A DNA stretch of 64,000 nucleotides from a virus. The stretch's first letter is position 1; each line of letters starts with the position of its first letter. Under the pieces are notes generated by a model, which saw nothing but the letters and a program-made list of their open reading frames with translations, made no database searches and was not told where the DNA came from. The stretch covers positions 32,001 to 96,000 of the IMG/VR virus record IMGVR_UViG_3300009158_000001, one strand, 5' to 3'. Both the position numbers and the translations under genes were made by a program. Of this stretch, positions 31,899 to 62,820 are shown in pieces.

Positions 31899-34800
31899 TA
31901 TAGTTTCCGCTCCATGTCAGAAGGTACACTGTATGTAGTGTTTATGTTTAGTCCAATACTTGAACCCGGAATTGCTTGGCGTAAAGACCTAGCATATTCT
32001 ACAGGATTGGTTCTATCAAGATTGAGACTTCTACTAGATATTCTAGCAGTTGCGCCATCTAAATATGACTTTTTCATTATACTTGTTGGTGCAGGAATAT
32101 TTGATTCTGAATAATCTGCGCCTAAAGCATCTGCCATATCCATACTTTGCCTACGATAACTATCACTGACAAGCGATCCACCACCAGTCAATGGTTGCAT
32201 TTGAGCATTACTATTCATTCCATAATTAGAAGGTGGTGGCGGTATATCACTTAATGGCTCATCATCATAGCCTTTAGTAAAGAGTGCATATAGACCAGCC
32301 ATTGCAGCCGCACCAATTCCAACAGTTCTAGCAAATTTATTCTCAAGTAAACCTTTAGCATCTTCTGCGCCAATAGACATTTCACTTCTCATTGACCTAA
32401 CAAAGTTTGCTTCAGCATTTACATTTCTTGTTTCCTCACTTATTCTAGAAGGAGCTGGCATAGGGGCAGGAGCTGTCTCAGCTTCATCAGCAAGCGACCC
32501 CATTGCTGTGTCAAGCCCCCCTCCTCCTTGGCGTGCCTGTGCCTTGTCAATCTCAGCTTGGTTACCTGCGGCAAGTCTTTGTTGAGCATCACTCATTTCA
32601 TTTGTTTTTTCTTCATAAAGACTTCTAAGATCAGCTTTTTCTCTTTCTCTTTGCTCAGGAGGAAGAGCATTTATTGATGAATTTAAAAGAGCAGTTCTTT
32701 CTGCTGCAGGTGCGCTAGCAAACGCAGCTTCAAAAGACCCATGATCTCCGGACGATAAAGCTCTAAGAACAGTAGTAGGCTCAATATCTTCTGCTTTTTT
32801 ACTTGCCTCTAAAGTACTTTTTGTAACTTTAGCTCTTGATAAACCTGAGGTTAATCCTTCCATTTGTTCAGGTGTTCTTTGAGGTAAAAGATAGTTAGAC
32901 TTTTGGCCATCTTTATCAGTGTAAAAGAATGAATCAAAAAACTCAGTGAAATAATTAGATCTTTTTTCTGGATTAGGCTCTGAGAGAATACGACCTACTG
33001 ATTCGGAGAATACGCTACCAAGTGTTCTATCAAGATGCTTAAAGCCAACCGCATTTTGTTCCATCTTATTAGCAAACACAGATAAGTCTTCTGCTTCTGT
33101 TCTTGTTATTGCCCCAGTCTCTTCAAGTATTCTTTTTATAAATCTTATTTCTTCTGCAGCATTAGAAGTTTGACCAATCTCAGACTGGCCAGACCATTTC
33201 ATAAATGCCTTCTGGACTTCACCTAATTCAAGGCTACCATTAGCTCCAAGTTTATCCTTAAGAGAATCTTTAATTATTGGATCAAATGCATTTTGACTTA
33301 TGTTATAGGATCTTTGTTGGTTAAACTGTTCTTTCATTGGCTCATCAGATGTTAAATCTCTAAGTTTTCCGTATGCCTCTTCGACCCCCTCAGGAGTGTT
33401 TAAAAGATGCTCATCTTCGGAGCTAACCTCAATCATTTTTGTTAAAGCAGCATCATGGTCAAAGTCGGCCGATGTTTTATTAGTGACGTTGCCACCCATT
33501 CTAACAAACTCTGCACCAGGAGTATCTTTTGATACAGTCTGGCCATTAGATATCCATTCTCCATATGCAGGAATTGATACACCACCTGCTTGGTCCATTT
33601 TAGGATTATATCTACCAGAGTATACACTCATAAACTCAGGACCAATGGAAGGAGGCTGTCCTGACATCATAGGCATGTCAGCTTTGCCAGCTAGTACATC
33701 CGCTCTGTATTTATTCAAATACGCAACTTCATGTTCGCGGCCAGCTGCTTGTGCTTTTTTTATTCTTAAATCAAAACTTTCATCTATTCGACTTCTTGAC
33801 AGGCCCATCTGATAAGGCTGCATATGAGTAGGCAAACTTTTATTTAATTCAGCTCCATAGACCGTTTCATATTTTGCTCCACTAATTCCACCTTCTAAAA
33901 GATGTGTTGTGATTCCAATACTTTCTTTATTCAAATCACCTTTAAATTCTCCAAACGCGCCATGTAATAGCTGAACAAGGTCATCGTCGATATTTTCCAT
34001 GTTCTTTTCAAGCATGTCAAAAATTCTACCAATGATATTCTTTAGTTTTAAATCTTCAGTTAATCTTGCTGATCTAGAATCTTTTACAGTAGAGGCGTTT
34101 AGTAGATTAGCAGAAGGAAGATACTCCATAGTATTTTCGGAATATTTTACAAACCCTCCAGTCTGTCTAAGCTGTTCAAGAGTTCCTCTTCTTTTTGCCA
34201 TTTCAGTTGCATATAATTCATCTGGTATTTTTGCACTAAGATCTAAGACTGTGTCTGAACCAACTTTACCAGCCTCTCCAACTGGCTGACTGCCAACTCT
34301 ATTTGCCATTTCTTGTACAGAAGATACATAAGCAGGATCTAGAGGAGTAATTCCTTGAAGAGCCTGATCAAAAGCAAGCATGTGTCGTTTACGGTATGGA
34401 CTGCCTTCTGCTGCAATAGTACTTCTTGTAGAGTCGTAAATCTCTTCTACGTAACGTCTTTCAAGCTTAGCGTCATTGTTAGAATCCAATGAGAAATCAC
34501 GACTTGTTTGAACATTCAATCCAACAACGGCAGGAGATGATTCAATTCCAGCCATAAGACTTGCTTGGTGTTCTTTATTGAATCCTAAAGCTTTTAACAT
34601 ATTTGTCGTTGCAGCTTGCTGGCCTTCCATCATTTCTGCTAAGCCAGGAAAGCCAGTACCTTTTTGTTCTAACCCAAAAATTAATCCATATACAGCTTCT
34701 TGATATGGTCTACGTTGATTATTAGGAGTGTTAATTTTTAAATGCTGATTTACTTTCTTAAGCATTACAAGTAGTGCGTTAGTATCTTTTTCAGAATAGC

Positions 34801-54094: not shown

Positions 54095-54126
54095 AAAGAA
54101 AACCCCCAGGCCTTTCGACCTGGGGG
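54091..54126 (-). terminator. Rho-independent terminator after the major capsid gene
   Basis: Minus strand reads CCCCCAGG-TCGAAAGG-CCTGGGGG followed by TTTTCTTTTGTT. Confidence 0.9.
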
Positions 54127-54148
54127 CTATTTATCTATCTTCTAATTA

Positions 54149-55432
54149 TTAGTTAGAAGGGAAGTTTGAGCCGCCGTCAATTGTAGCGCCAGCAGGATCA
54201 AAACCAGAGGTAGGATCGTAGTAAGGACGCGCAATTTCAGGTGAGTAGAAGTTCTGGTCGCAGAAGATATTCTTAAGCGTAACTAGACCCTGGCCTTCGT
54301 TATACATGAAGATACCCCACTTCTCTGACCACTTCATCTTGAAGGTCTCAAAGTACTTGTCTTCCCACTCGTCAGCAACAATGCCTGAACCAACAATTAG
54401 AGCACCAAGTGACTTGCTATCGCAAAGAACGATATCGGTAAGCTTAGTAGCAGGATCGTAAGGCATGAAGCGTGAAGTCACAATACGTAGACCAAACGGA
54501 AGGCCAAGAGGAAGCTGAGGAGCAGCTGTAATGGCATTAACGTTAAAGTCCTTAAGTGAAGCACCAGTACCATCGGGCTTAAGACCAAGCTGGCCACGTG
54601 AGTAACCCTTTGAAAGGACACCCTTAACGGCATCAGGAACACCGCTAACGTTAGCAGCCGAACCCGAATAGTTACCAAAGAGATTGCCGCTGCCGCTCTG
54701 CATGGCAAATGCACGAAGGACGGGGTCGCGTACAAACATAAGGTAAGTAAGAGGATGGCAGATTAGCGTATCGGGAGTGAAACCTCTCTGGATGAGAAGG
54801 TGATACGCATTGAAAAGGTCATCCATGGTAAGCGTACCATTGGTCTTGAGCGTAATGTCACGACCAGTGGTGATACCAAGAGCTGACTGAGAAGGATTAA
54901 GATTGTCGAACGCAGGAACGCTGATGTTCGTGATATGCTTAGCGATTTCGGTCTCCTTGCGGCGAGCGAAAGCACGACCGGCCTCACGGGCAAGGTAACC
55001 AAGGAGATTCCAATTGGAAGCCTTGATAGCCTCTTGCGTAAGGGAGATCATAACACCCCACTTGTCAATGGCGGCCGTAGCCATACCACCGCCAGTAGTC
55101 ACACGCTCTTCACGGTAACCTTCAAGCTCAGTGACCTTATGGACAGTGAAAGCTGAAAGGGCGGGAAGACGGAACTCAGTAATACCATCCGGCGCAGGAA
55201 TGGTATCAAGGAGTGGGGTAAGATTGAGCATTGGCTCCATTGGCTCCATCATAATCTCAACAATTGAGTGCTTGACCCAGGGCCCAAGCTCAGCTGACGT
55301 AATCGCGTCTTCGATTGAAAGACGTGAGTCGCTGGAGTGGTCTGAGCCAGGAAGCCAACCGTTGTTCTTGATGAGCGCTGTAAGCTCACTCTGATCAGCA
55401 ATTTCTAGGTTCTTGTGCTTTAGTCTTGACAT
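54149..55432 (-). CDS. Major capsid protein (HK97 fold), 427 aa
   Basis: KWGVMISLTQEAIKASNWNLLGYLAREAGRAFARRKE long-helix signature and PDTLICHPL; GGAG RBS; GC-rich optimised codons; followed by a strong terminator. Confidence 0.9.
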   Translation of the reverse strand: MSRLKHKNLEIADQSELTALIKNNGWLPGSDHSSDSRLSIEDAITSAELGPWVKHSIVEIMMEPMEPMLNLTPLLDTIPAPDGITEFRLPALSAFTVHKVTELEGYREERVTTGGGMATAAIDKWGVMISLTQEAIKASNWNLLGYLAREAGRAFARRKETEIAKHITNISVPAFDNLNPSQSALGITTGRDITLKTNGTLTMDDLFNAYHLLIQRGFTPDTLICHPLTYLMFVRDPVLRAFAMQSGSGNLFGNYSGSAANVSGVPDAVKGVLSKGYSRGQLGLKPDGTGASLKDFNVNAITAAPQLPLGLPFGLRIVTSRFMPYDPATKLTDIVLCDSKSLGALIVGSGIVADEWEDKYFETFKMKWSEKWGIFMYNEGQGLVTLKNIFCDQNFYSPEIARPYYDPTSGFDPAGATIDGGSNFPSN

Positions 55433-55466: not shown

Positions 55467-57026
55467 TTAGAGTAGGACGCGCACGATGGCAGCGAACTGA
55501 CCACCGCTTGACTGATGAATTTCTGCAGGATGGCCATCATTAGCCGAACCAGGAGTACGATCAGCGAGTGACACGCCATCATAGTCATGGAAAGTCTTGA
55601 CAGAGGCAAGATCAGCCTTAGGTGAACGGTCAAGTGTATAGCACTTACCAACAATGTCTTCAGGAAGCTGATAGCCAGTAGGGTTGGCCCAAGTAGTAAC
55701 CTTGGCTACACTAGCATCAGTAAGGTCACCAGTAGTGGCGGCAACAAGAGCACCAGCAGTGATCTTGAGTGCAACCTCAGGCGTGCGAGCCACATAAGGG
55801 ACAAAGTTAGAATACTTGTCGTAGGAGAGATAATCGCCAGGCTTGACATTACCAGTCACTCCGGCAAAAACAGCAACGTCAACATACTGATCACTGGTAT
55901 CTGCAGCAGCGTCTGAGACGTTAGAGCCAGCAAGAGCAACAGCAGCAGTGGGTAGGTAGCTGAATGTGACAACAGTGCCAGCGGTAGCAAGAGTGCCAGC
56001 GCCGCCCGACTCATACATGAAAAGAATACCAAGTTCACGGTCAACGAAATAATCGCCAACCTTTGTTAGTTGATTTGGGCTACCCTTCTCAGCCTTAAGA
56101 ACAAGTGCGCTTGCAGAAACAGTGCCATATTGCATGGCATTGTAAATGTTATGCTCAATGCTCTTACGACCAAGAGCAAGAGCCACCCAGTTCTCATTCG
56201 TTAGATCGGCATAGCGGACAGGAAGAAGAGCCAAGAGGTCCGAAGCGCCTGCGTCACCAATTTCATTGCCGAAAATCCAACGCGCTGTACCAGCAACTTC
56301 AAGCTGACTAAGAGCAGTAAGCTTTTGGGTATTTGCAGCAGTCGTAACAGTCGCGGCCTTAATAGGAGCAACAGGTAGACGAAGGGTGTGGTCCTGGCCA
56401 GTCCAGAAGGTTGACTTATTTTCACGACGATAGTTCATGAAGCGAAGCTTGTTGGGCTGCGTACCATCACCACCAGCCCAGGCATAAACCACGTTAGCAG
56501 CTACACCGATTGGGCGAGAAATAAAGGCATCAATAGTCTCTGACGCGCCAATAAGGCCACGACTCTTGAGATGCGTAGTCAACTGCGTGACTGTGTACTC
56601 AACAGCAGCAGCAACAGGAAGACCAGTTGTTAGGTCTTCAATGCGCTCATCTACATCTTTCTGCTCATACTTAAGGACCGGAGTGGTACCGCCAGCGACA
56701 ATAGCAGCCTTCCAAGCAAGACGAATACCTGCAGGAACAAGGCGACCTACTGTGCCAAGGTTAATGGTAGAAGTAGCATTCTCACCAGTAAGACTCTCAC
56801 GAGTGAGAGCAACAAGCTTACCGGGCATGATTACAACCATATCGGTAAAGACGTGGCGCTGATACTTGTATGAGAAATAACCATTGGCCGAATTTGTAGC
56901 ATTGCGGCTAATTGGGAGCCAAGCCGCAGCGGCAAGGTCATTCTGAGGTGCAACCGTGTCGCCGTGCGTAGGGGCGATAATCGGCTTACCATAATCGATA
57001 TCTCTAAGCTTTCTATATGTTGCCAT
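55467..57026 (-). CDS. Capsid-associated (decoration/cement-like) protein, 519 aa
   Basis: Immediately upstream of the major capsid gene; VVIMPGKLVAL, RPIGVA and VKPGDYLSYDKYSNFV motifs; codon usage of a highly expressed gene. Confidence 0.6.
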   Translation of the reverse strand: MATYRKLRDIDYGKPIIAPTHGDTVAPQNDLAAAAWLPISRNATNSANGYFSYKYQRHVFTDMVVIMPGKLVALTRESLTGENATSTINLGTVGRLVPAGIRLAWKAAIVAGGTTPVLKYEQKDVDERIEDLTTGLPVAAAVEYTVTQLTTHLKSRGLIGASETIDAFISRPIGVAANVVYAWAGGDGTQPNKLRFMNYRRENKSTFWTGQDHTLRLPVAPIKAATVTTAANTQKLTALSQLEVAGTARWIFGNEIGDAGASDLLALLPVRYADLTNENWVALALGRKSIEHNIYNAMQYGTVSASALVLKAEKGSPNQLTKVGDYFVDRELGILFMYESGGAGTLATAGTVVTFSYLPTAAVALAGSNVSDAAADTSDQYVDVAVFAGVTGNVKPGDYLSYDKYSNFVPYVARTPEVALKITAGALVAATTGDLTDASVAKVTTWANPTGYQLPEDIVGKCYTLDRSPKADLASVKTFHDYDGVSLADRTPGSANDGHPAEIHQSSGGQFAAIVRVLL

Positions 57027-57047: not shown

Positions 57048-57860
57048 TTAGACTTTCACATCTAGTGGGTTAAACTTTCCTGAAACAAAGCCAGAACGCA
57101 CTTGCTGAACAAGATAGTTCTCAGCTTTATTTATATCATGATTTCGTAATTCCTTATATTTACTAGCGACTCTGCGCTCTACAGATGTATAGTATTCTTC
57201 TGTGGTATCCATTGCGTCTTCGATGGTGCTAACATCAAGCTTCTTGCCAAGTTCTTTGAGCTCAGAAGAATCTTCAATAATAATTTCTTCTGACTCTGAA
57301 CTGTCAGCAATTTCACTTACTATCTCTTCGACAGAGTCCATTGGTCCACTCATTTCTTCTTTGATTTCATCGGCAGGAGATTCGCTAGGAATTTCCATGC
57401 CAGCAGCCTGAAGAGAAGCTCCAAGTTGCCACTGCCATTTCTGGTGCATATCAATACGCTCAGCAAGAAAGTTAGCAACACCCTGCTCATTTGCAGCATT
57501 GGCAGCATCAAAGGTACCCTTGAGCATAGCAATCATAGCTACATTCTTCTTGTAAATATCAAGAGCAAGGTCTTTAGCTTCAGTAGTCATAGAGTCATCT
57601 TTGAATGACGCCGTCTCTACCATGTGAGTAAGAGAAGGAGGGAATGCCCCAAGCTTGCGAATATTCTCAGCAAGATCATCTACTGAGCCGTATACATCAT
57701 CATAAATATTGCCAAATAGCTCATGGTACTCAGCAAAATCTGGGCCAGCCACATTCCAATGGGCACGATGCGCAGTGAAGTAAAAAACAACTACGTTGCA
57801 AAGTAGGTCTTCAAGAGCATCAGCGACAGAAGTCGCGCCGGTTGTCATTTCAGTTTCCAT
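57048..57860 (-). CDS. dps: Dps (ferritin-like DNA-protection protein) with an acidic C-terminal extension of about 115 aa
   Basis: AHWNVAGPDFAEYHELFGNIYDDVYGSVDDLAENIRKLG carries the Dps ferroxidase His/His/Asp/Glu; C-terminal helix HQKWQWQL; GGAGG RBS. Confidence 0.9.
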   Translation of the reverse strand: METEMTTGATSVADALEDLLCNVVVFYFTAHRAHWNVAGPDFAEYHELFGNIYDDVYGSVDDLAENIRKLGAFPPSLTHMVETASFKDDSMTTEAKDLALDIYKKNVAMIAMLKGTFDAANAANEQGVANFLAERIDMHQKWQWQLGASLQAAGMEIPSESPADEIKEEMSGPMDSVEEIVSEIADSSESEEIIIEDSSELKELGKKLDVSTIEDAMDTTEEYYTSVERRVASKYKELRNHDINKAENYLVQQVRSGFVSGKFNPLDVKV

Positions 57861-57927
57861 ATTATTCCTCCAAAAGGATTAAGTTAAATTAATAATTACA
57901 TAGTGATTCTAGCATAATTCCTATACT

Positions 57928-60654
57928 TTAGCCACCTATACCAGGAGCAGGATAAGCACCAAGAGGAGGAGTTTCTTTCTTGCTCCACACAACAGGAGCC
58001 ATAATCTTTCTAAGCTCAGATCTTTTTTTGACAATTACTTCTTCAGTCTTGTCATATAAGCCATCCTCATTCATCCTGGCAATAGTGAGAACAGTAGCGG
58101 GATCCTCTTCAGAACCCTCCACACTGCAACTAATTCCATGAGTAACAACACCTTTGCTATGCATTGCATCAATAACGCCGTATCCTTCCTTCATTTCAAC
58201 TGCATCATCTTGCTCACCAAGTGAACCAGAGCTAACACCAACTTCATTACCTTTACTGTCAAGGCGATAAGCAACAAAGTCACCCACTGCAAATGTAGCA
58301 GTTGAAGGAGTAGTGTAAGTCTTCTCGGGGGTATAAGTATCCTCGACGCCAACCTCAGCAACAGGCTCATTGTAAACAAAGTCTCCCATAACCCAAGAAC
58401 CTTTGACTGAGTCTTCGGCTCTCATACGTTCAATCTGAGCAGCTTTGGCATAAGCCCAAGTCTTGCCACCATCACCACCCCAAAGATCCCAAGCAATACG
58501 ACCAGCAGAAGGAAAACCTTCTTCCCCCTGGCTAAAGCCAGAAGCCTTCTTATCAACTTCATGACGAGCAAAAAAACTTTTCATACGCATAACAGTAGAA
58601 GGAGAAAGTTCTTTTTTATTCATGATGTCTCTCGCACGCGCAACACCTACACCCGTGCCACCGCGCTTGAATTCTCCACGCCACTCAAGGCCCCGCTTAG
58701 CAGCTGATGCCATACCAGGCGTAGGAATAAAACCTTGAGCTTCATCATCCATTTCTGGACCAAATAGATCTTGGATATCTTCTCCAAACTCAGACTGATC
58801 CATCTTTGACTTACCAGCATCTTGCATACGAGCTAGCATCTTTTGAGCACGAGCCTGAATAGATTTGACTTTCTCAGGAGCAAGACCACTTACTTGTGGC
58901 GCTCTAGCAATAGCATTACGAAGGTGTGGAAGATCAACCTTGCCATCTTCTCCCTTATAGGGAAGGTGACGGAGTGAACGAGGCTTAGTTTTGCCCTCTT
59001 CATCCTTCTCGCCACCTTGAGTAATGTAGAAGAATGAACTATCAGGAAGGTTATTAACGTAAGCAGTAGTCCAGACAGCATCATCAATGCTGATAGTCTT
59101 TACCATTTCGGAGAACATCTCAGCCGACATATCGTCAGCTAACTCTACATTAAAGTTATTAGCAAGAAATTCTTTAACAGAATCTAGTAGTGATTTACTA
59201 TCAAGTTCAACCTTTGCAAGTTTCTCATCTGTGATAGCTTTGCCAGAGCGTAATTCTTCAAGCTCTGACATTACCTCTACAGGAGCAATAGATTTTGACT
59301 TAATATATTCGTCAACAATTGAAAGAATTTCTTTCTTATTGTCTTCTGATAGTGCAGTGGGCATTTCTTGCTCCTCTTGGTTAGTTAATTTGGTTTGGTC
59401 TTCCATAGGTTCTTGCTTGCTTGCTGAGACTAACCCATCTGGGATAACAGCAAATCTGCAGTAGCCATTTGGTTCTATAGTTTGGGAAATAATTTTACAA
59501 CAATTCTCACTAGCATGAAGAGCACAATTGCCACACTTAACGCCAATGCTAAGATTCTCATTTTCTGGGCCACTTTCATAGCCAACCCAGATACCAGGAG
59601 CCTTATCTAAAGGCCCGACCTTGGCAGCAAGAGTCATCAAAGAATCCGCAAGCGCTTTCTCTTCTTCTGATAACTGACTGTAAAGATCTGCATGATCTTC
59701 AACAATCTCAGTTGGCACCGTAGCAACTGGACCATTATCAAAGCTGGCCATAATCTCCGAGTCAGAGATATCTGTAACTGCATTCTTGAAACAATCAGTG
59801 ACAACCATAGTAGTCTTGAAGTTTTCTAGATATTGTTGAAGTGCGTCGCCTCCAACTTCTTTGTAATTCATAACTCTTGCGTGAACATCAGCAGGATGGG
59901 TGACATAGGCATAACCACGGTAACGGAGACCACTCGGTACACCATAAGCTTTAACGCCATCAATGTCATCGCCAATATCCCATTCCATCTCATCAGTCTT
60001 ATATGATCTACCGCTGATAGAGTCATAGAGGTCATTAGGTGTCATTTCTACGCTGACTGTAAGATAGCGACCATCTAGAGTTTTCTCTACGGCTTCTGGA
60101 TCTGTAACAAGTCCCTTGACAAGTACCCATCCAAGGCCCTCAAAATCCTCATCAGTCATCATTCCAGACTTGGCAAGCTTCTTCATATAGGGAGCCATAG
60201 CAACATCAGGAGCCTTAAGCATAAGGCCATCCTTGATCATTCCAGAGCTAACATTATAGGCAGCCTTAGGATTGTCTACCCACGTACCACCAATAGCCCG
60301 ACCAACTGCGCCTACTTCTCTATTCTCAATCTTCTTACCATCAACAACAGCAACTTCCTTATGCATAGGCTTAATGGGGATATTGTATGGATTAGTAAGT
60401 GTAGGGATAGCGTCTTTTAGATCAGCAGGCATATAAATAAGATTATTCTGAGTAGGCCTCATACCATGAGTAACCTTGGTAAGAGTTACTAGGCCGACCT
60501 TATTCTCCGCAACACCATCATTAATAAAGTATTTGAAATCAAGAAAATGAGGACTCTTTTTGTCCCATACTTCATGGGTAAAATCGCCCTTAACACTATT
60601 AACAAAATAGTCTTGAACGATACCTTCTTGTAATAGTCTCTTACTTATCTTCAT
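57928..60654 (-). CDS. Prohead maturation protease fused to several accessory domains, 908 aa
   Basis: N-terminal PMH...AVGRAI...VTDPEAVEKTLDGRYLTVSVEM...YVTHPAD fits an HK97/herpes-type protease; located between portal and capsid genes. Confidence 0.75.
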   Translation of the reverse strand: MKISKRLLQEGIVQDYFVNSVKGDFTHEVWDKKSPHFLDFKYFINDGVAENKVGLVTLTKVTHGMRPTQNNLIYMPADLKDAIPTLTNPYNIPIKPMHKEVAVVDGKKIENREVGAVGRAIGGTWVDNPKAAYNVSSGMIKDGLMLKAPDVAMAPYMKKLAKSGMMTDEDFEGLGWVLVKGLVTDPEAVEKTLDGRYLTVSVEMTPNDLYDSISGRSYKTDEMEWDIGDDIDGVKAYGVPSGLRYRGYAYVTHPADVHARVMNYKEVGGDALQQYLENFKTTMVVTDCFKNAVTDISDSEIMASFDNGPVATVPTEIVEDHADLYSQLSEEEKALADSLMTLAAKVGPLDKAPGIWVGYESGPENENLSIGVKCGNCALHASENCCKIISQTIEPNGYCRFAVIPDGLVSASKQEPMEDQTKLTNQEEQEMPTALSEDNKKEILSIVDEYIKSKSIAPVEVMSELEELRSGKAITDEKLAKVELDSKSLLDSVKEFLANNFNVELADDMSAEMFSEMVKTISIDDAVWTTAYVNNLPDSSFFYITQGGEKDEEGKTKPRSLRHLPYKGEDGKVDLPHLRNAIARAPQVSGLAPEKVKSIQARAQKMLARMQDAGKSKMDQSEFGEDIQDLFGPEMDDEAQGFIPTPGMASAAKRGLEWRGEFKRGGTGVGVARARDIMNKKELSPSTVMRMKSFFARHEVDKKASGFSQGEEGFPSAGRIAWDLWGGDGGKTWAYAKAAQIERMRAEDSVKGSWVMGDFVYNEPVAEVGVEDTYTPEKTYTTPSTATFAVGDFVAYRLDSKGNEVGVSSGSLGEQDDAVEMKEGYGVIDAMHSKGVVTHGISCSVEGSEEDPATVLTIARMNEDGLYDKTEEVIVKKRSELRKIMAPVVWSKKETPPLGAYPAPGIGG

Positions 60655-61180
60655 TAGCCTTCCTTATAATGACTTTGCTATTAGGATGATCAGGCGGTAA
60701 ATCATAATACTTACTATCTGAGATTTTTCTATTATCTATTATAGACTGACTACTTTGATTATATACCTGGTATGATTCTTCACCACTATCCTTTAAAGCA
60801 TTGAATACGCCCCAGTTATAGCTTCTCATTCTTTCTGTCTCATAGATAGTCATCATCCTGTGCCCAATTGTCTTAGCCGTATCAGTAATAGTATTACCTT
60901 GGCGATTGCGCATTTCAATGTGTAGCTTGTCTATGAAAAACTTCTGAACCTTCAACTGGAATTCTATATTACCAGTATGCGTCTCGTTCGTTAGATTAGA
61001 AGAGTCGGCATACTCAGAGTAACCTTTTATATAGGCCTTAATGCTGTTGTCTTTAAGCATAATAGAAAAACGCTCAAATGCAGCATCAATGGTAAAGTCA
61101 GGTTGGATGTCATAGTCAGCTTTCTCTTTTAGATGGCTAACTAATCCATTCACGTCTTCTCTATACTCATCAAAGTCCAT
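60641..61180 (-). CDS. 179-aa ORF; probably the frameshifted C-terminal part of the portal (open frame extends up to 61291)
   Basis: No SD sequence before the ATG at 61180. The frame is open for 37 more codons upstream, into the A10 run. Confidence 0.6.
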   Translation of the reverse strand: MDFDEYREDVNGLVSHLKEKADYDIQPDFTIDAAFERFSIMLKDNSIKAYIKGYSEYADSSNLTNETHTGNIEFQLKVQKFFIDKLHIEMRNRQGNTITDTAKTIGHRMMTIYETERMRSYNWGVFNALKDSGEESYQVYNQSSQSIIDNRKISDSKYYDLPPDHPNSKVIIRKANEDK

Positions 61181-61275: not shown

Positions 61276-62820
61276 CTACTGAATTTTTTTTTTAGTATTG
61301 CCTGAATCTTTCTCGGACACTGTTGGCTTCTTTGCTAGATTACCAGCAGCTAGATCTCTAGCCTTCTGCAGATCACCAGAGGACATAGGAGTCCTGTTAC
61401 TCTTGGCAGATGTCTCAGCAAGAGGAGACATAGGATTTGCGCCAAGTCTAAGTAGTTCTTGAGCTTCTGTAACCATCTTGTAATATGAATGATCCCAGTC
61501 CTCATCTTTCGCAGTGGACATACCAATGCGATCTCTTAACTCATCATGACTAATCGCGCTATTAAGCCAAAGCTGGATAGCTGCGTTTTCCTTTTTAATT
61601 TGATTCTCAACATCTATTTCTTTAAATCTAAGAACAACTTTGTTATTAGGATCTAGCCAGTCAAAACTATTGTCCTCTGCACTTTCTTGAAGCATAGGAA
61701 CAATAAGATTAGCATAGATTTGCTCTTCAAGAACAAGTTGATCACTCTTGACTGCGTTAATAAGGCTACTAGACATAGTAGCTGCTGTAGAACGGTTAGC
61801 AGTATCACCTTCCCCAATATCTACCGTTGATAGGCCAAGGGCAGCAAGAACACGTTTCTTAAAGTAATCAAGATAACTTTCAGCTCTAAGAGAACGACCT
61901 TCTGCGCCAATCATTTTAATTTCATGACGTTCAGGGGTAACAAAGAAACCTTCTGGTGGCTGATTATTAATAACCTCAGTAACCATAGTAATCTCATCTC
62001 TACCATCTGGAAGAATAGTAGCAGGCATTGCTTCGGTTCCAATCTTATACTGTACAATTGGAAAGATGCTTTGATGAAGTAAAACTTCTACGTCTGTTTC
62101 AATTCGACGCAAAGCTTTAATATCTTCAATAGCAGCACTGCATCTTGGCGTACCAACAATAAACCCTTCAAGCTTATTAACATGAAAATGTATGATCTCA
62201 CTAGGCTCATAGATTGAGGTCGGACGAGTATTTTCTGTCCAATCCTCTTCGCTGTATTGTCGATACTTTATAGGCTGTTTAAGGTCATTAACCTTAACCT
62301 GGATCATACTAGTAGGAAGTATATGAAGTGAGCTAATTGGGGCTATTTTGCGCCCTTTAGAGTCTGTTCTAGTATAGCCTCCAGATGTCTTGTCATTGCG
62401 CTTGATAAGAACAAAACAATTACTATATCTAATAATATTCTTGGCTATATCAGTTATAAACTGTCTAGGCGTAGTACGACTAACGTAGCAAACTTCCTTA
62501 AGTCTGCGCTCTACGTAGTCTACAAGATCTGGGTCTTTCCCTATTACCTCATAGCCTTCTTTCATGAAAAGAGAAAGTTTCTTGTCAAAGCTAATCTGTA
62601 AGTAAGCTTCAATTGTAGCAACTTTATCTATTTCCTTAAAATCATGCTCTAGCTTTTGCCAGTCATTCATGAAGTAAGGACGTGTCGTTCTATAGTTAAA
62701 TACTGGATCCTTTGTCTTTTCTAGACTAGGCCCAGGCATCTTACTCTCAGCATCATCTATTACCTTAACGGATGATGCAAGATTCTTAAGATTAATAACT
62801 TGTGCTTTTAATTTAAACAT
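61276..62820 (-). CDS. Portal protein (514 aa as read; about 726 aa if frameshifted)
   Basis: Motifs NIIRYSNCFVLIKR, EIIHFH...GTPR..AAIEDIKALRRIE, YLDYFKKRVLAALG...IGEGDTANRSTA and ISHDELRDRIG. Confidence 0.88.
   Translation of the reverse strand: MFKLKAQVINLKNLASSVKVIDDAESKMPGPSLEKTKDPVFNYRTTRPYFMNDWQKLEHDFKEIDKVATIEAYLQISFDKKLSLFMKEGYEVIGKDPDLVDYVERRLKEVCYVSRTTPRQFITDIAKNIIRYSNCFVLIKRNDKTSGGYTRTDSKGRKIAPISSLHILPTSMIQVKVNDLKQPIKYRQYSEEDWTENTRPTSIYEPSEIIHFHVNKLEGFIVGTPRCSAAIEDIKALRRIETDVEVLLHQSIFPIVQYKIGTEAMPATILPDGRDEITMVTEVINNQPPEGFFVTPERHEIKMIGAEGRSLRAESYLDYFKKRVLAALGLSTVDIGEGDTANRSTAATMSSSLINAVKSDQLVLEEQIYANLIVPMLQESAEDNSFDWLDPNNKVVLRFKEIDVENQIKKENAAIQLWLNSAISHDELRDRIGMSTAKDEDWDHSYYKMVTEAQELLRLGANPMSPLAETSAKSNRTPMSSGDLQKARDLAAGNLAKKPTVSEKDSGNTKKKIQ

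Follow-up and report, generated by a model that had tools for sequence, protein, structure and literature searches.

A Dps-type mini-ferritin with a putatively scaffold-derived tail is encoded in the head module of an uncultured phage

Scaffolding proteins of phages are generally seen as purely structural chaperones of head assembly; those of P22 (gp8), 80alpha and phi29 bind the coat protein via a C-terminal helix-turn-helix or helical hairpin. In Bacillus phage 0305phi8-36, the annotated order of the head genes is portal (gp122), 'protease/scaffold' (gp123) with the nested scaffold product gp123*, gp124, and capsid protein (gp125), and gp123/gp123* represents a fusion of the P2 gpO type. Entry into the head can also be conferred by targeting elements: the internal proteins (IPs) and Alt of phage T4 reach the capsid via an N-terminal capsid targeting sequence, and the C-terminal targeting of the HK97 protease can bring foreign proteins into proheads. 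Dps proteins of phages, in turn, are seen as cytoplasmic helpers; their genes in Lactobacillus phages have been described as oxidative-stress helpers residing among DNA-metabolism genes (PMC6669764), and those of gut phages have likewise been read as stress helpers (PMC8008677). A 2026 study of HK97-fold shells proposed that scaffolds and the cargo of encapsulins are internal partners that can replace one another, and raised the possibility that scaffolds keep biochemical functions (PMC13669383). Here we report on the in silico analysis of positions 32,001 to 96,000 of the IMG/VR virus record IMGVR_UViG_3300009158_000001 (a stretch of 64,000 nucleotides, referred to below as the window), in which a Dps (mini-ferritin) protein equipped with a scaffold-like tail is encoded in the head module. 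This protein is likely to be a head-assembly protein, i.e., a scaffold-like ferroxidase of the procapsid interior, rather than a free cytoplasmic stress protein.

The source record of the 64-kb window is a complete viral genome of 174,107 bp with terminal repeats, and all long open reading frames (ORFs) are found on the minus strand. The ORF that a preliminary description of this DNA had placed at positions 57048..57860 is real, with the correction that it is read from the minus strand; its gene (P0001) starts with an ATG at 57860, ends with a stop codon at 57048-57050, and codes for a protein of 270 amino acids (aa). The strong ribosome-binding site described for it is also present, since a Shine-Dalgarno sequence (GGAGG; 57867..57871, minus strand) ends 6 nt 5' of the start codon. 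Three parts can be distinguished in the encoded protein, a Dps domain, an acidic linker and a C-terminal hairpin, and this architecture recurs in 52 cluster representatives (clusters formed at 90% identity).

The Dps domain comprises residues 6-152 (57405..57845, minus strand) and is intact, as had been claimed. It is recognized by the Pfam model of ferritin-like proteins (PF00210; residues 14-151, E 9e-15) and by phrog_3636 (phage Dps-like; E 7e-22), and all of the closest solved structures found in a sequence search of the PDB are Dps proteins (E down to 2e-18). An AlphaFold model built from an alignment of 20 relatives predicts that residues 6-152 fold as a four-helix Dps bundle, with values above 90 in the predicted local distance difference test (pLDDT); its helices span residues 6-36, 42-69, 77-83, 95-122 and 126-152, with the short helix situated in the long B-C loop as in the Dps family. 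Normalized to crystal structures of Dps proteins, the Foldseek template modeling score (TM-score) of the model is 0.86-0.93. The last Dps helix carries a signature of this clade (..NEQG.ANF.AER.D.H.KW.WQL).

In the Escherichia coli Dps protein, the inter-subunit ferroxidase site is formed by H51, H63, D78 and E82, together with a neighboring Trp. Alignments with PDB entries identify H34, H46, D61 and E65 as the candidate ferroxidase ligands of the phage protein, with W35 adjacent to H34. None of these five residues varies among 165 non-redundant Dps domains of the clade, across all architectures in which the domain occurs, and this invariance argues that the metal chemistry has been kept and not merely the fold. 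We therefore consider it quite likely, judging from sequence conservation, that the Dps domain retains iron chemistry. The usual 12-subunit Dps cage is probably formed as well. A DNA-coating role, as one might envisage for a Dps protein, is unlikely because the protein is very acidic (net charge of the Dps domain, -11) and lacks the Lys-rich DNA-binding tails: its N-terminus is short, and the net charges of the linker and of the C-terminal tail are -15 and -1, respectively.

The linker (residues 153-199; 57264..57404, minus strand) is indeed as acidic as the preliminary description had stated, with 16 Asp/Glu residues versus a single Lys/Arg residue. It is disordered (pLDDT below 50) and hypervariable. 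In the AlphaFold model, disorder extends over residues 161-220, so that a flexible acidic stretch of roughly 50-70 residues is present; neither a coiled coil nor an elongated helical scaffold body is predicted between the Dps domain and the hairpin. Acidic disordered tethers of this kind are a typical feature of scaffolds. Linkers are only 17-23% identical between subclades whose tails share 72-96% of their residues, and one subclade has tails that are 96% identical, compared with 58% identity for the Dps domain and 21% for the linker.

Downstream of the linker follows a conserved segment with no predicted structure (residues 200-223, ..LGKKLDV.TIEDA..; 57192..57263, minus strand), in which G205, K206, D209, I213 and D215 are invariant and which constitutes a candidate docking or cleavage motif. 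The tetrapeptide IEDA occurs just twice in the 54,045 aa encoded by the genome: at residues 40-43 of the capsid protein (55313-55324) and at residues 213-216 of the Dps protein (57213-57224), where it is located just N-terminal to the hairpin. Both copies have the context S-(T)-I-E-D-A-[IM] and are conserved in relatives. As two proteins of such sizes should share about 1.5 tetrapeptides by chance alone, we regard a common maturation-cleavage or docking motif as a weak lead from sequence inspection.

The protein ends with a predicted helical hairpin (residues ~222-264; 57069..57197, minus strand), whose two helices cover residues 226-241 and 243-256 (pLDDT 75-91). The C-terminus had been characterized as basic and helical; the helical part of this statement holds, whereas basic is an overstatement, given a net charge of +3 for the hairpin and of -1 for the entire tail of 71 aa. 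A genome-wide search found the tail, or motifs of it, on no other protein of the phage, and it is therefore not a tag common to several cargo proteins. When the tail was used in an atlas structure search, generic helical hairpins were retrieved. A partner-binding role of the tail would fit these data: the tail is conserved above the enzyme domain, it is unique in the genome, and conservation is likewise high (87-97%) in the clade's capsid protein. A divergent case is found on a 1.9-kb contig (L046:145-651; P0124), where about 95 residues without relation to Dps precede the conserved tail; upstream, a linker-like acidic sequence is present in another frame, and the arrangement could have arisen by insertion into the linker or be a chimera produced by the assembly.

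The origin of the tail is not apparent from single-sequence searches: the last 75 residues, used as a single query against 1.84 billion representatives, retrieved the phage's own group only, and the scaffold relationship is thus invisible at this level. The preliminary description had pointed to related phages without Dps as the place where the same C-terminal segment might reside on a protease or scaffold protein, and this is where it is found. We gathered relatives via the capsid protein. In the nearest clade, whose capsid proteins are 31-41% identical to that of the window, Dps is absent from 84 out of 84 loci; these loci possess, in this order, genes for the portal, a gp123-type protease/scaffold protein of 500-890 aa, a counterpart of the 519-aa protein encoded next to Dps in the window, and the capsid protein. 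The protease/scaffold gene ends in these loci where the Dps gene ends in the window. For an unselected profile, we took the 60 C-terminal residues of every one of the 64 non-redundant protease/scaffold proteins in this clade. Run against the 2,423 ORFs that a six-frame translation of the window phage's genome provides, this profile matched the Dps ORF alone (E 0.0067; next best 8.5), and the match covers residues ~222-264, i.e., the hairpin. Profile-profile comparison with hhalign yielded 81% (E 1.2e-5, 42 columns), and none of 5000 shuffled versions of the tail reached the score of the real one (17.4 bits versus a maximum of 11.0). These profile comparisons indicate that the tail shares its ancestry with the C-terminal ~45 residues of the protease/scaffold protein found in Dps-less relatives of the phage. 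One Dps-less relative encodes an unusually built protease/scaffold protein of 1,166 aa (L070:2119-5619, on the same contig as L160), whose conserved 'LPxSSFCGP...' domain is interrupted by a large insertion that contains HNH-like motifs, ends with ..VHNS and is intein-like.

The position of the gene points in the same direction as its tail. In the order of transcription, the head module consists of a 389-aa ORF, the portal gene, a 179-aa ORF, a 908-aa gene, the Dps gene, a 519-aa gene and the gene for the major capsid protein. A single strong terminator was found in this module; it is an intrinsic terminator-like hairpin 3' of the capsid gene (54101..54128, minus strand; 12-bp stem with 8 GC pairs, followed by a T run) that closes the operon to which the Dps gene belongs. 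Because the Dps gene is flanked by the gp123-like 908-aa gene and the gp124-like 519-aa gene, it occupies the site of the scaffold portion. The assignment to the scaffold slot made earlier is borne out by synteny with 0305phi8-36, and the placement between portal/protease and capsid genes under a shared terminator is also syntenic with Acinetobacter phage ME3 and with the 84 loci of the nearest clade. Two details of the proposed placement between the prohead protease and capsid genes have to be amended: the 519-aa gene intervenes before the capsid gene, and the 908-aa gene has no Pfam protease match.

Dps domains of the same clade are found in other head genes. Two homologue searches yielded 209 Dps-containing cluster representatives (90% identity), which we sorted into architectures by motifs; the second search targeted long proteins, which biases the proportions but not the recurrence of the architectures. 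Besides the 52 clusters of the window type, there are 64 clusters in which Dps is combined with a gp123-type protease and a gp123*-type scaffold (hhalign against gp123, 99.7% for the protease half and 91% for the scaffold half), 27 clusters in which it is fused to an S78 prohead protease encoded between the portal and capsid genes, about 20 clusters with the order S78, Dps and a second type of scaffold, encoded directly before the capsid gene, and 22 clusters of stand-alone Dps. Fusions of this type of Dps to proteases or scaffolds extend to about 170 other phage protein clusters, and identity within the clade is 45-60% across all architectures. Gene contexts include TerL, portal, Dps-S78 fusion and capsid; portal, a 408-aa Dps fusion (in which Dps alone was matched) and capsid; a fusion, a 252-aa gene and capsid (on a 198-kb contig); and portal, S78-DUF6321-Dps-scaffold and capsid. 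In viral-contig loci, stand-alone Dps of the clade is encoded directly after the portal gene. Public structure models of viral proteins labeled 'Prohead protease' hold a Dps fold too. Single ORFs of 1,709 and 1,735 aa that include Dps (L027:4275-9404 and L030:4200-9407) stand outside the tally of 209; inspection by eye indicates that these chains also possess an AAKRALEW ('AAKRGLEW') domain and motifs resembling those of proteases, and that their C-terminal part is long and helical, so that they resemble giant head-morphogenesis polyproteins. Among 50,697 deposited phage genomes, we found no Dps fusion; the protease halves alone had matches there. Judged by these searches, a scaffold or cargo tether bearing an enzyme of the ferritin superfamily appears to be confined to uncultured phages.

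These contexts bear on the conventional view of phage Dps proteins, according to which the window protein would be an auxiliary protein of the cytoplasm that protects the host cell or the replicating DNA, its gene having been inserted in the head operon by chance and its tail being used otherwise. This is how Dps genes of phages have been interpreted to date (PMC6669764; PMC8008677), and the conserved ferroxidase ligands would suit such a function equally well. However, those genes are located among DNA-metabolism genes and their products are just 24-28% identical to the window protein, most of the clusters retrieved for the present clade are fusions to proteases or scaffolds, and the tail is homologous to scaffold ends and better conserved than the enzyme domain. 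A cytoplasmic auxiliary protein is consequently a very unlikely explanation.

A particularly informative set of relatives, group A, has capsid proteins that are ~88-91% identical to each other and a protease/scaffold gene that exists in three states (L103:4356-6110, L100:4140-6107 and L083:4470-6095 are the loci compared): Dps is either missing (498-541 aa), intact (655 aa, and the P0148 type) or reduced to a remnant that retains the last Dps helix only (584 aa). All three versions include the coiled-coil scaffold; the Dps domain is hence dispensable for assembly in group A and behaves as a cargo that is gained and lost. In the clade of the window protein, Dps may have taken over the multimerizing role. 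Carried to its extreme, this idea leads to a structural exaptation without iron chemistry, with the Dps fold serving as a 12-mer hub that multimerizes capsid-binding hairpins in place of a coiled coil. The window clade does lack the coiled-coil segment of its relatives, as neither the 908-aa gene nor the Dps gene encodes a detectable coiled-coil scaffold segment and no gp123*-like part was found in the 908-aa gene. In addition, the position equivalent to the second-shell residue D67 of E. coli Dps is occupied by Gly in the window protein and is variable in the clade. Yet a mere hub would have no need for four metal ligands and a Trp that do not vary among 165 domains, Dps is not the hub in group A since a coiled coil exists there beside the optional Dps, and Cys-rich motifs of a metal-binding type recur beside Dps in several lineages. 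We therefore rate a purely structural role of the Dps fold as very improbable.

The targeting to the capsid interior that the preliminary description had put forward is well supported by this comparative evidence, namely the scaffold slot, the scaffold-derived tail and the recurrent fusions; the link that it drew to encapsulins is an analogy. We can envisage the following course of events for the window phage. Late in infection, the Dps protein would be made together with the capsid protein. Its oligomer, with the tails directed outward, would display many hairpins, and would thus be co-assembled as a multivalent, scaffold-like core inside the procapsid, with the hairpins docking on the inner face of the capsid by analogy to the scaffolds of P22 (gp8), P2 (gpO) and 80alpha. 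In the window clade, Dps would replace the coiled-coil part of the ancestral scaffold, while in other lineages it would be an optional passenger between protease and scaffold. Inside the shell, Fe(II) could be oxidized and stored and peroxide consumed. The head protease may then cut the tether; the folded cage, too large for the capsid pores, would most likely stay in the DNA-filled head, where it could spare the genome some Fenton damage while the phage is outside its host. Delivery of the folded cage into the host, a further possibility raised earlier, is unlikely because a dodecamer cannot pass the tail tube.

The steps of this scheme differ in how firmly they can be proposed. Association with the procapsid is the part that we hold with good confidence; retention of the Dps protein in mature virions has somewhat less than an even chance of being correct. 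The broadest formulation, that mature virions of widespread, uncultured and mostly large phages hold iron-loaded Dps nanocages which have been loaded via tethers derived from scaffolds or proteases, is offered as a tentative and rather doubtful proposal.

Against retention stands the behavior expected of a transient scaffold: the Dps-hairpin protein would be loaded into the procapsid and then, as is usual for scaffolds, degraded or expelled when DNA is packaged, leaving mature virions without Dps. Its iron chemistry would in this case serve the infected cell or the assembling head, with late-made Dps, present in large amounts, detoxifying Fe(II) and peroxide during replication and packaging. 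The charges of the Dps domain and of the linker resemble those of scaffolds that are displaced by DNA, the gene sits in the scaffold slot and its tail is scaffold-derived, and group A can do without Dps. Digestion and loss are also the usual fate of the protease, and of the proteins fused to it, in HK97-type systems. Conversely, a folded bundle or 12-mer should, to go by Dps structures, be protease-resistant and too large for the capsid pores, and repeated, independent fusions to head proteins are hard to explain if Dps is useful in the cytoplasm. On balance, we consider a strictly transient presence unlikely, though a more serious contender than the two explanations discussed above.

Apart from the variable D67 position, several observations weigh against our interpretation of the window protein as a scaffold-like ferroxidase retained in the head. 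Its strong negative charge is ill-suited to a location beside dense DNA, and this favors removal at maturation over retention. The tail homology spans just ~42 columns; an earlier profile of seven sequences had ranked the Dps ORF second without significance (E 0.37), and the tail bears no similarity to gp123*, to ME3 gp20 or to the scaffold ends of group A. No model of the Pfam families S78, S78_2 or S77 (PF04586, PF14550, PF03420) matches anywhere in the genome, the AlphaFold prediction for residues 1-300 of the 908-aa protein (22-row alignment) gave no usable fold (pLDDT 29.7), and the designation of this protein as a protease is by homology to an annotated protein only. Any benefit of Dps must be conditional since the insert of group A is dispensable and sometimes decayed. 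Furthermore, all relatives stem from uncultured phages.

The neighbors of the Dps gene are those of a genuine head module. The portal protein (61276..62820, minus strand) was identified by phrog_9232 (E 1.5e-34) and by BLASTP to gp122 of 0305phi8-36 (E 4e-50); the 179-aa ORF that follows it (60641-61180, minus strand) has no family match. The major capsid protein (54149..55432, minus strand) belongs to the HK97 fold family (PF25209, E 2e-10) and, like the portal protein, is a distant relative of its counterparts in 0305phi8-36 and ME3. Between the Dps and capsid genes lies the gene for the 519-aa decoration-like protein (55467..57026, minus strand), which is related to ME3 gp21 (BLASTP, E 3e-7); ME3 gp21 corresponds in position to gp124 of 0305phi8-36, a 'putative head decoration protein' found in virions. 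Among relatives with ~96% identical capsid proteins, the 519-aa protein is 55-78% identical, and this variability fits a surface-exposed, fast-evolving head protein.

The 908-aa gene upstream of the Dps gene (57928-60654, minus strand) encodes a multidomain protein. Its protease-like N-terminal domain (residues ~50-278; 59821..60507, minus strand) is related to the protease domain of 0305phi8-36 gp123 (BLASTP, E 6e-11; hhalign, 95%), a protein called a protease by its GenBank note, and to the N-terminal domain of the protease-Dps-scaffold fusions (hhalign, 92%). H98 is nearly invariant and S201 invariant in this domain. Alignment of gp123-type N-terminal domains with the S78 domains of Dps fusions by hhalign was insignificant (19% or less). 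In lax Pfam and PHROG scans with five segments of the 908-aa gene and with the 519-aa gene, phrog_2859 was the sole match; a PDB sequence search with the 908-aa protein was negative, its N-terminus matched only unnamed viral clusters in the atlas, and a homologue search with the first 300 residues gave two fragments. The phrog_2859 domain ('AAKRGLEW...AWDLWGG'; residues ~645-743; 58426..58722, minus strand; E 2e-30) is, in other phages, joined directly to the N-terminal side of Dps in P0061 and P0083 and also precedes Dps in the L027/L030 polyproteins. In P0083, Dps is located between the phrog_2859 domain and what by eye looks like a Tudor/SH3-like domain; these two domains are adjacent in the 908-aa gene. 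A cluster of four cysteines (C-x2-C ... CC ... C) is present at residues ~374-399 of the 908-aa protein (59458..59535, minus strand), and a tblastn search with residues 308-429 matched the gene directly after stand-alone Dps in six loci (L033-L038). Cys clusters also occur near Dps in P0126, P0142 and L030, with a CDCGCGSC motif and a 10-Cys stretch (L030) situated just upstream of Dps in fusions. A theme of putative metal sites thus seems to recur beside Dps in several lineages.

If our interpretation is correct, an enzyme for iron detoxification has been wired into phage head assembly in several independent ways, and the window protein would be a natural scaffold with a biochemical function, a notion that has been raised only as a hypothesis (PMC13669383). 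It would tie the procapsids of phages mechanistically to encapsulins loaded with ferritin. Should Dps nanocages be present in virions, these would be the phage counterpart of ferritin-filled encapsulins and would represent an extant stage between 'scaffold' and 'enzymatic cargo' among HK97-fold shells, and the virions would be a protected iron pool whose genome has a built-in defense against damage by peroxide and iron. Our interpretation points to a new factor in how well virions survive in waters rich in peroxide and iron, and is relevant to the amount of iron carried by virus particles. The hairpin of ~45 residues could be exploited as a natural tag to direct proteins into large capsids of phages, and head modules that are nearly identical but have an intact, a missing or a decayed Dps insert amount to a natural experiment.

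Our literature searches found no paper on Dps fused to prohead proteases or scaffolds, so that the comparison has to be made with systems that share single aspects. The closest is 0305phi8-36, with which the window shares the gene order of portal, protease/scaffold, decoration and capsid proteins and, in the N-terminal domain of the 908-aa protein, a homologue of the protease domain of gp123; in 64 clusters, moreover, it is a gp123 homologue that carries Dps between its protease and scaffold halves. In contrast to 0305phi8-36, the scaffold portion of the window is a separate gene, contains Dps and an acidic linker instead of a coiled coil, and ends in a hairpin that is not detectably similar to gp123* but resembles that of the nearer Dps-less clade. 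With the scaffolds of P22 (gp8), 80alpha and phi29, it has in common a predicted two-helix C-terminal hairpin that follows a flexible acidic region and is encoded just upstream of the capsid gene; this likeness is one of architecture, for which we claim no sequence homology, and these scaffolds are devoid of an enzyme domain.

Encapsulins loaded with EncFtn/Flp or IMEF cargo likewise combine an HK97-fold shell with an enzyme of the ferritin superfamily that carries a C-terminal docking element on a flexible linker. However, the window derives from a true tailed phage, which possesses genes for portal, terminase and tail proteins and a complete 174-kb genome, its capsid protein is of the 0305phi8-36 type, its putative cargo is of the Dps 12-mer type and not EncFtn, Flp or IMEF, and its docking element is a scaffold hairpin of ~45 residues as opposed to a short targeting peptide. 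With a phage capsid protein, an adjacent portal gene and such a hairpin, the window protein falls outside the encapsulin cargo proteins.

Cellular Dps proteins and the phage Dps proteins noted earlier (those of Lactobacillus myoviruses, 'Gratiaviridae' and Synechococcus phage S-SRM01) possess the same fold and the same ferroxidase ligands. The clade described here is 24-28% identical to them, has its own last-helix signature, is acidic and lacks the Lys-rich tail; the genes of the earlier-noted phage proteins reside among DNA-metabolism genes, whereas those of the window clade are part of head modules. Finally, the T4 and HK97 systems differ from that of the window in that its targeting element is C-terminal and apparently scaffold-derived and in that its passenger would be an iron-storage cage instead of an anti-host effector. 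They resemble it in the principle of a passenger that enters the prohead tethered to a head-assembly element, and the fusions of Dps to S78 proteases can be viewed as their natural counterparts.

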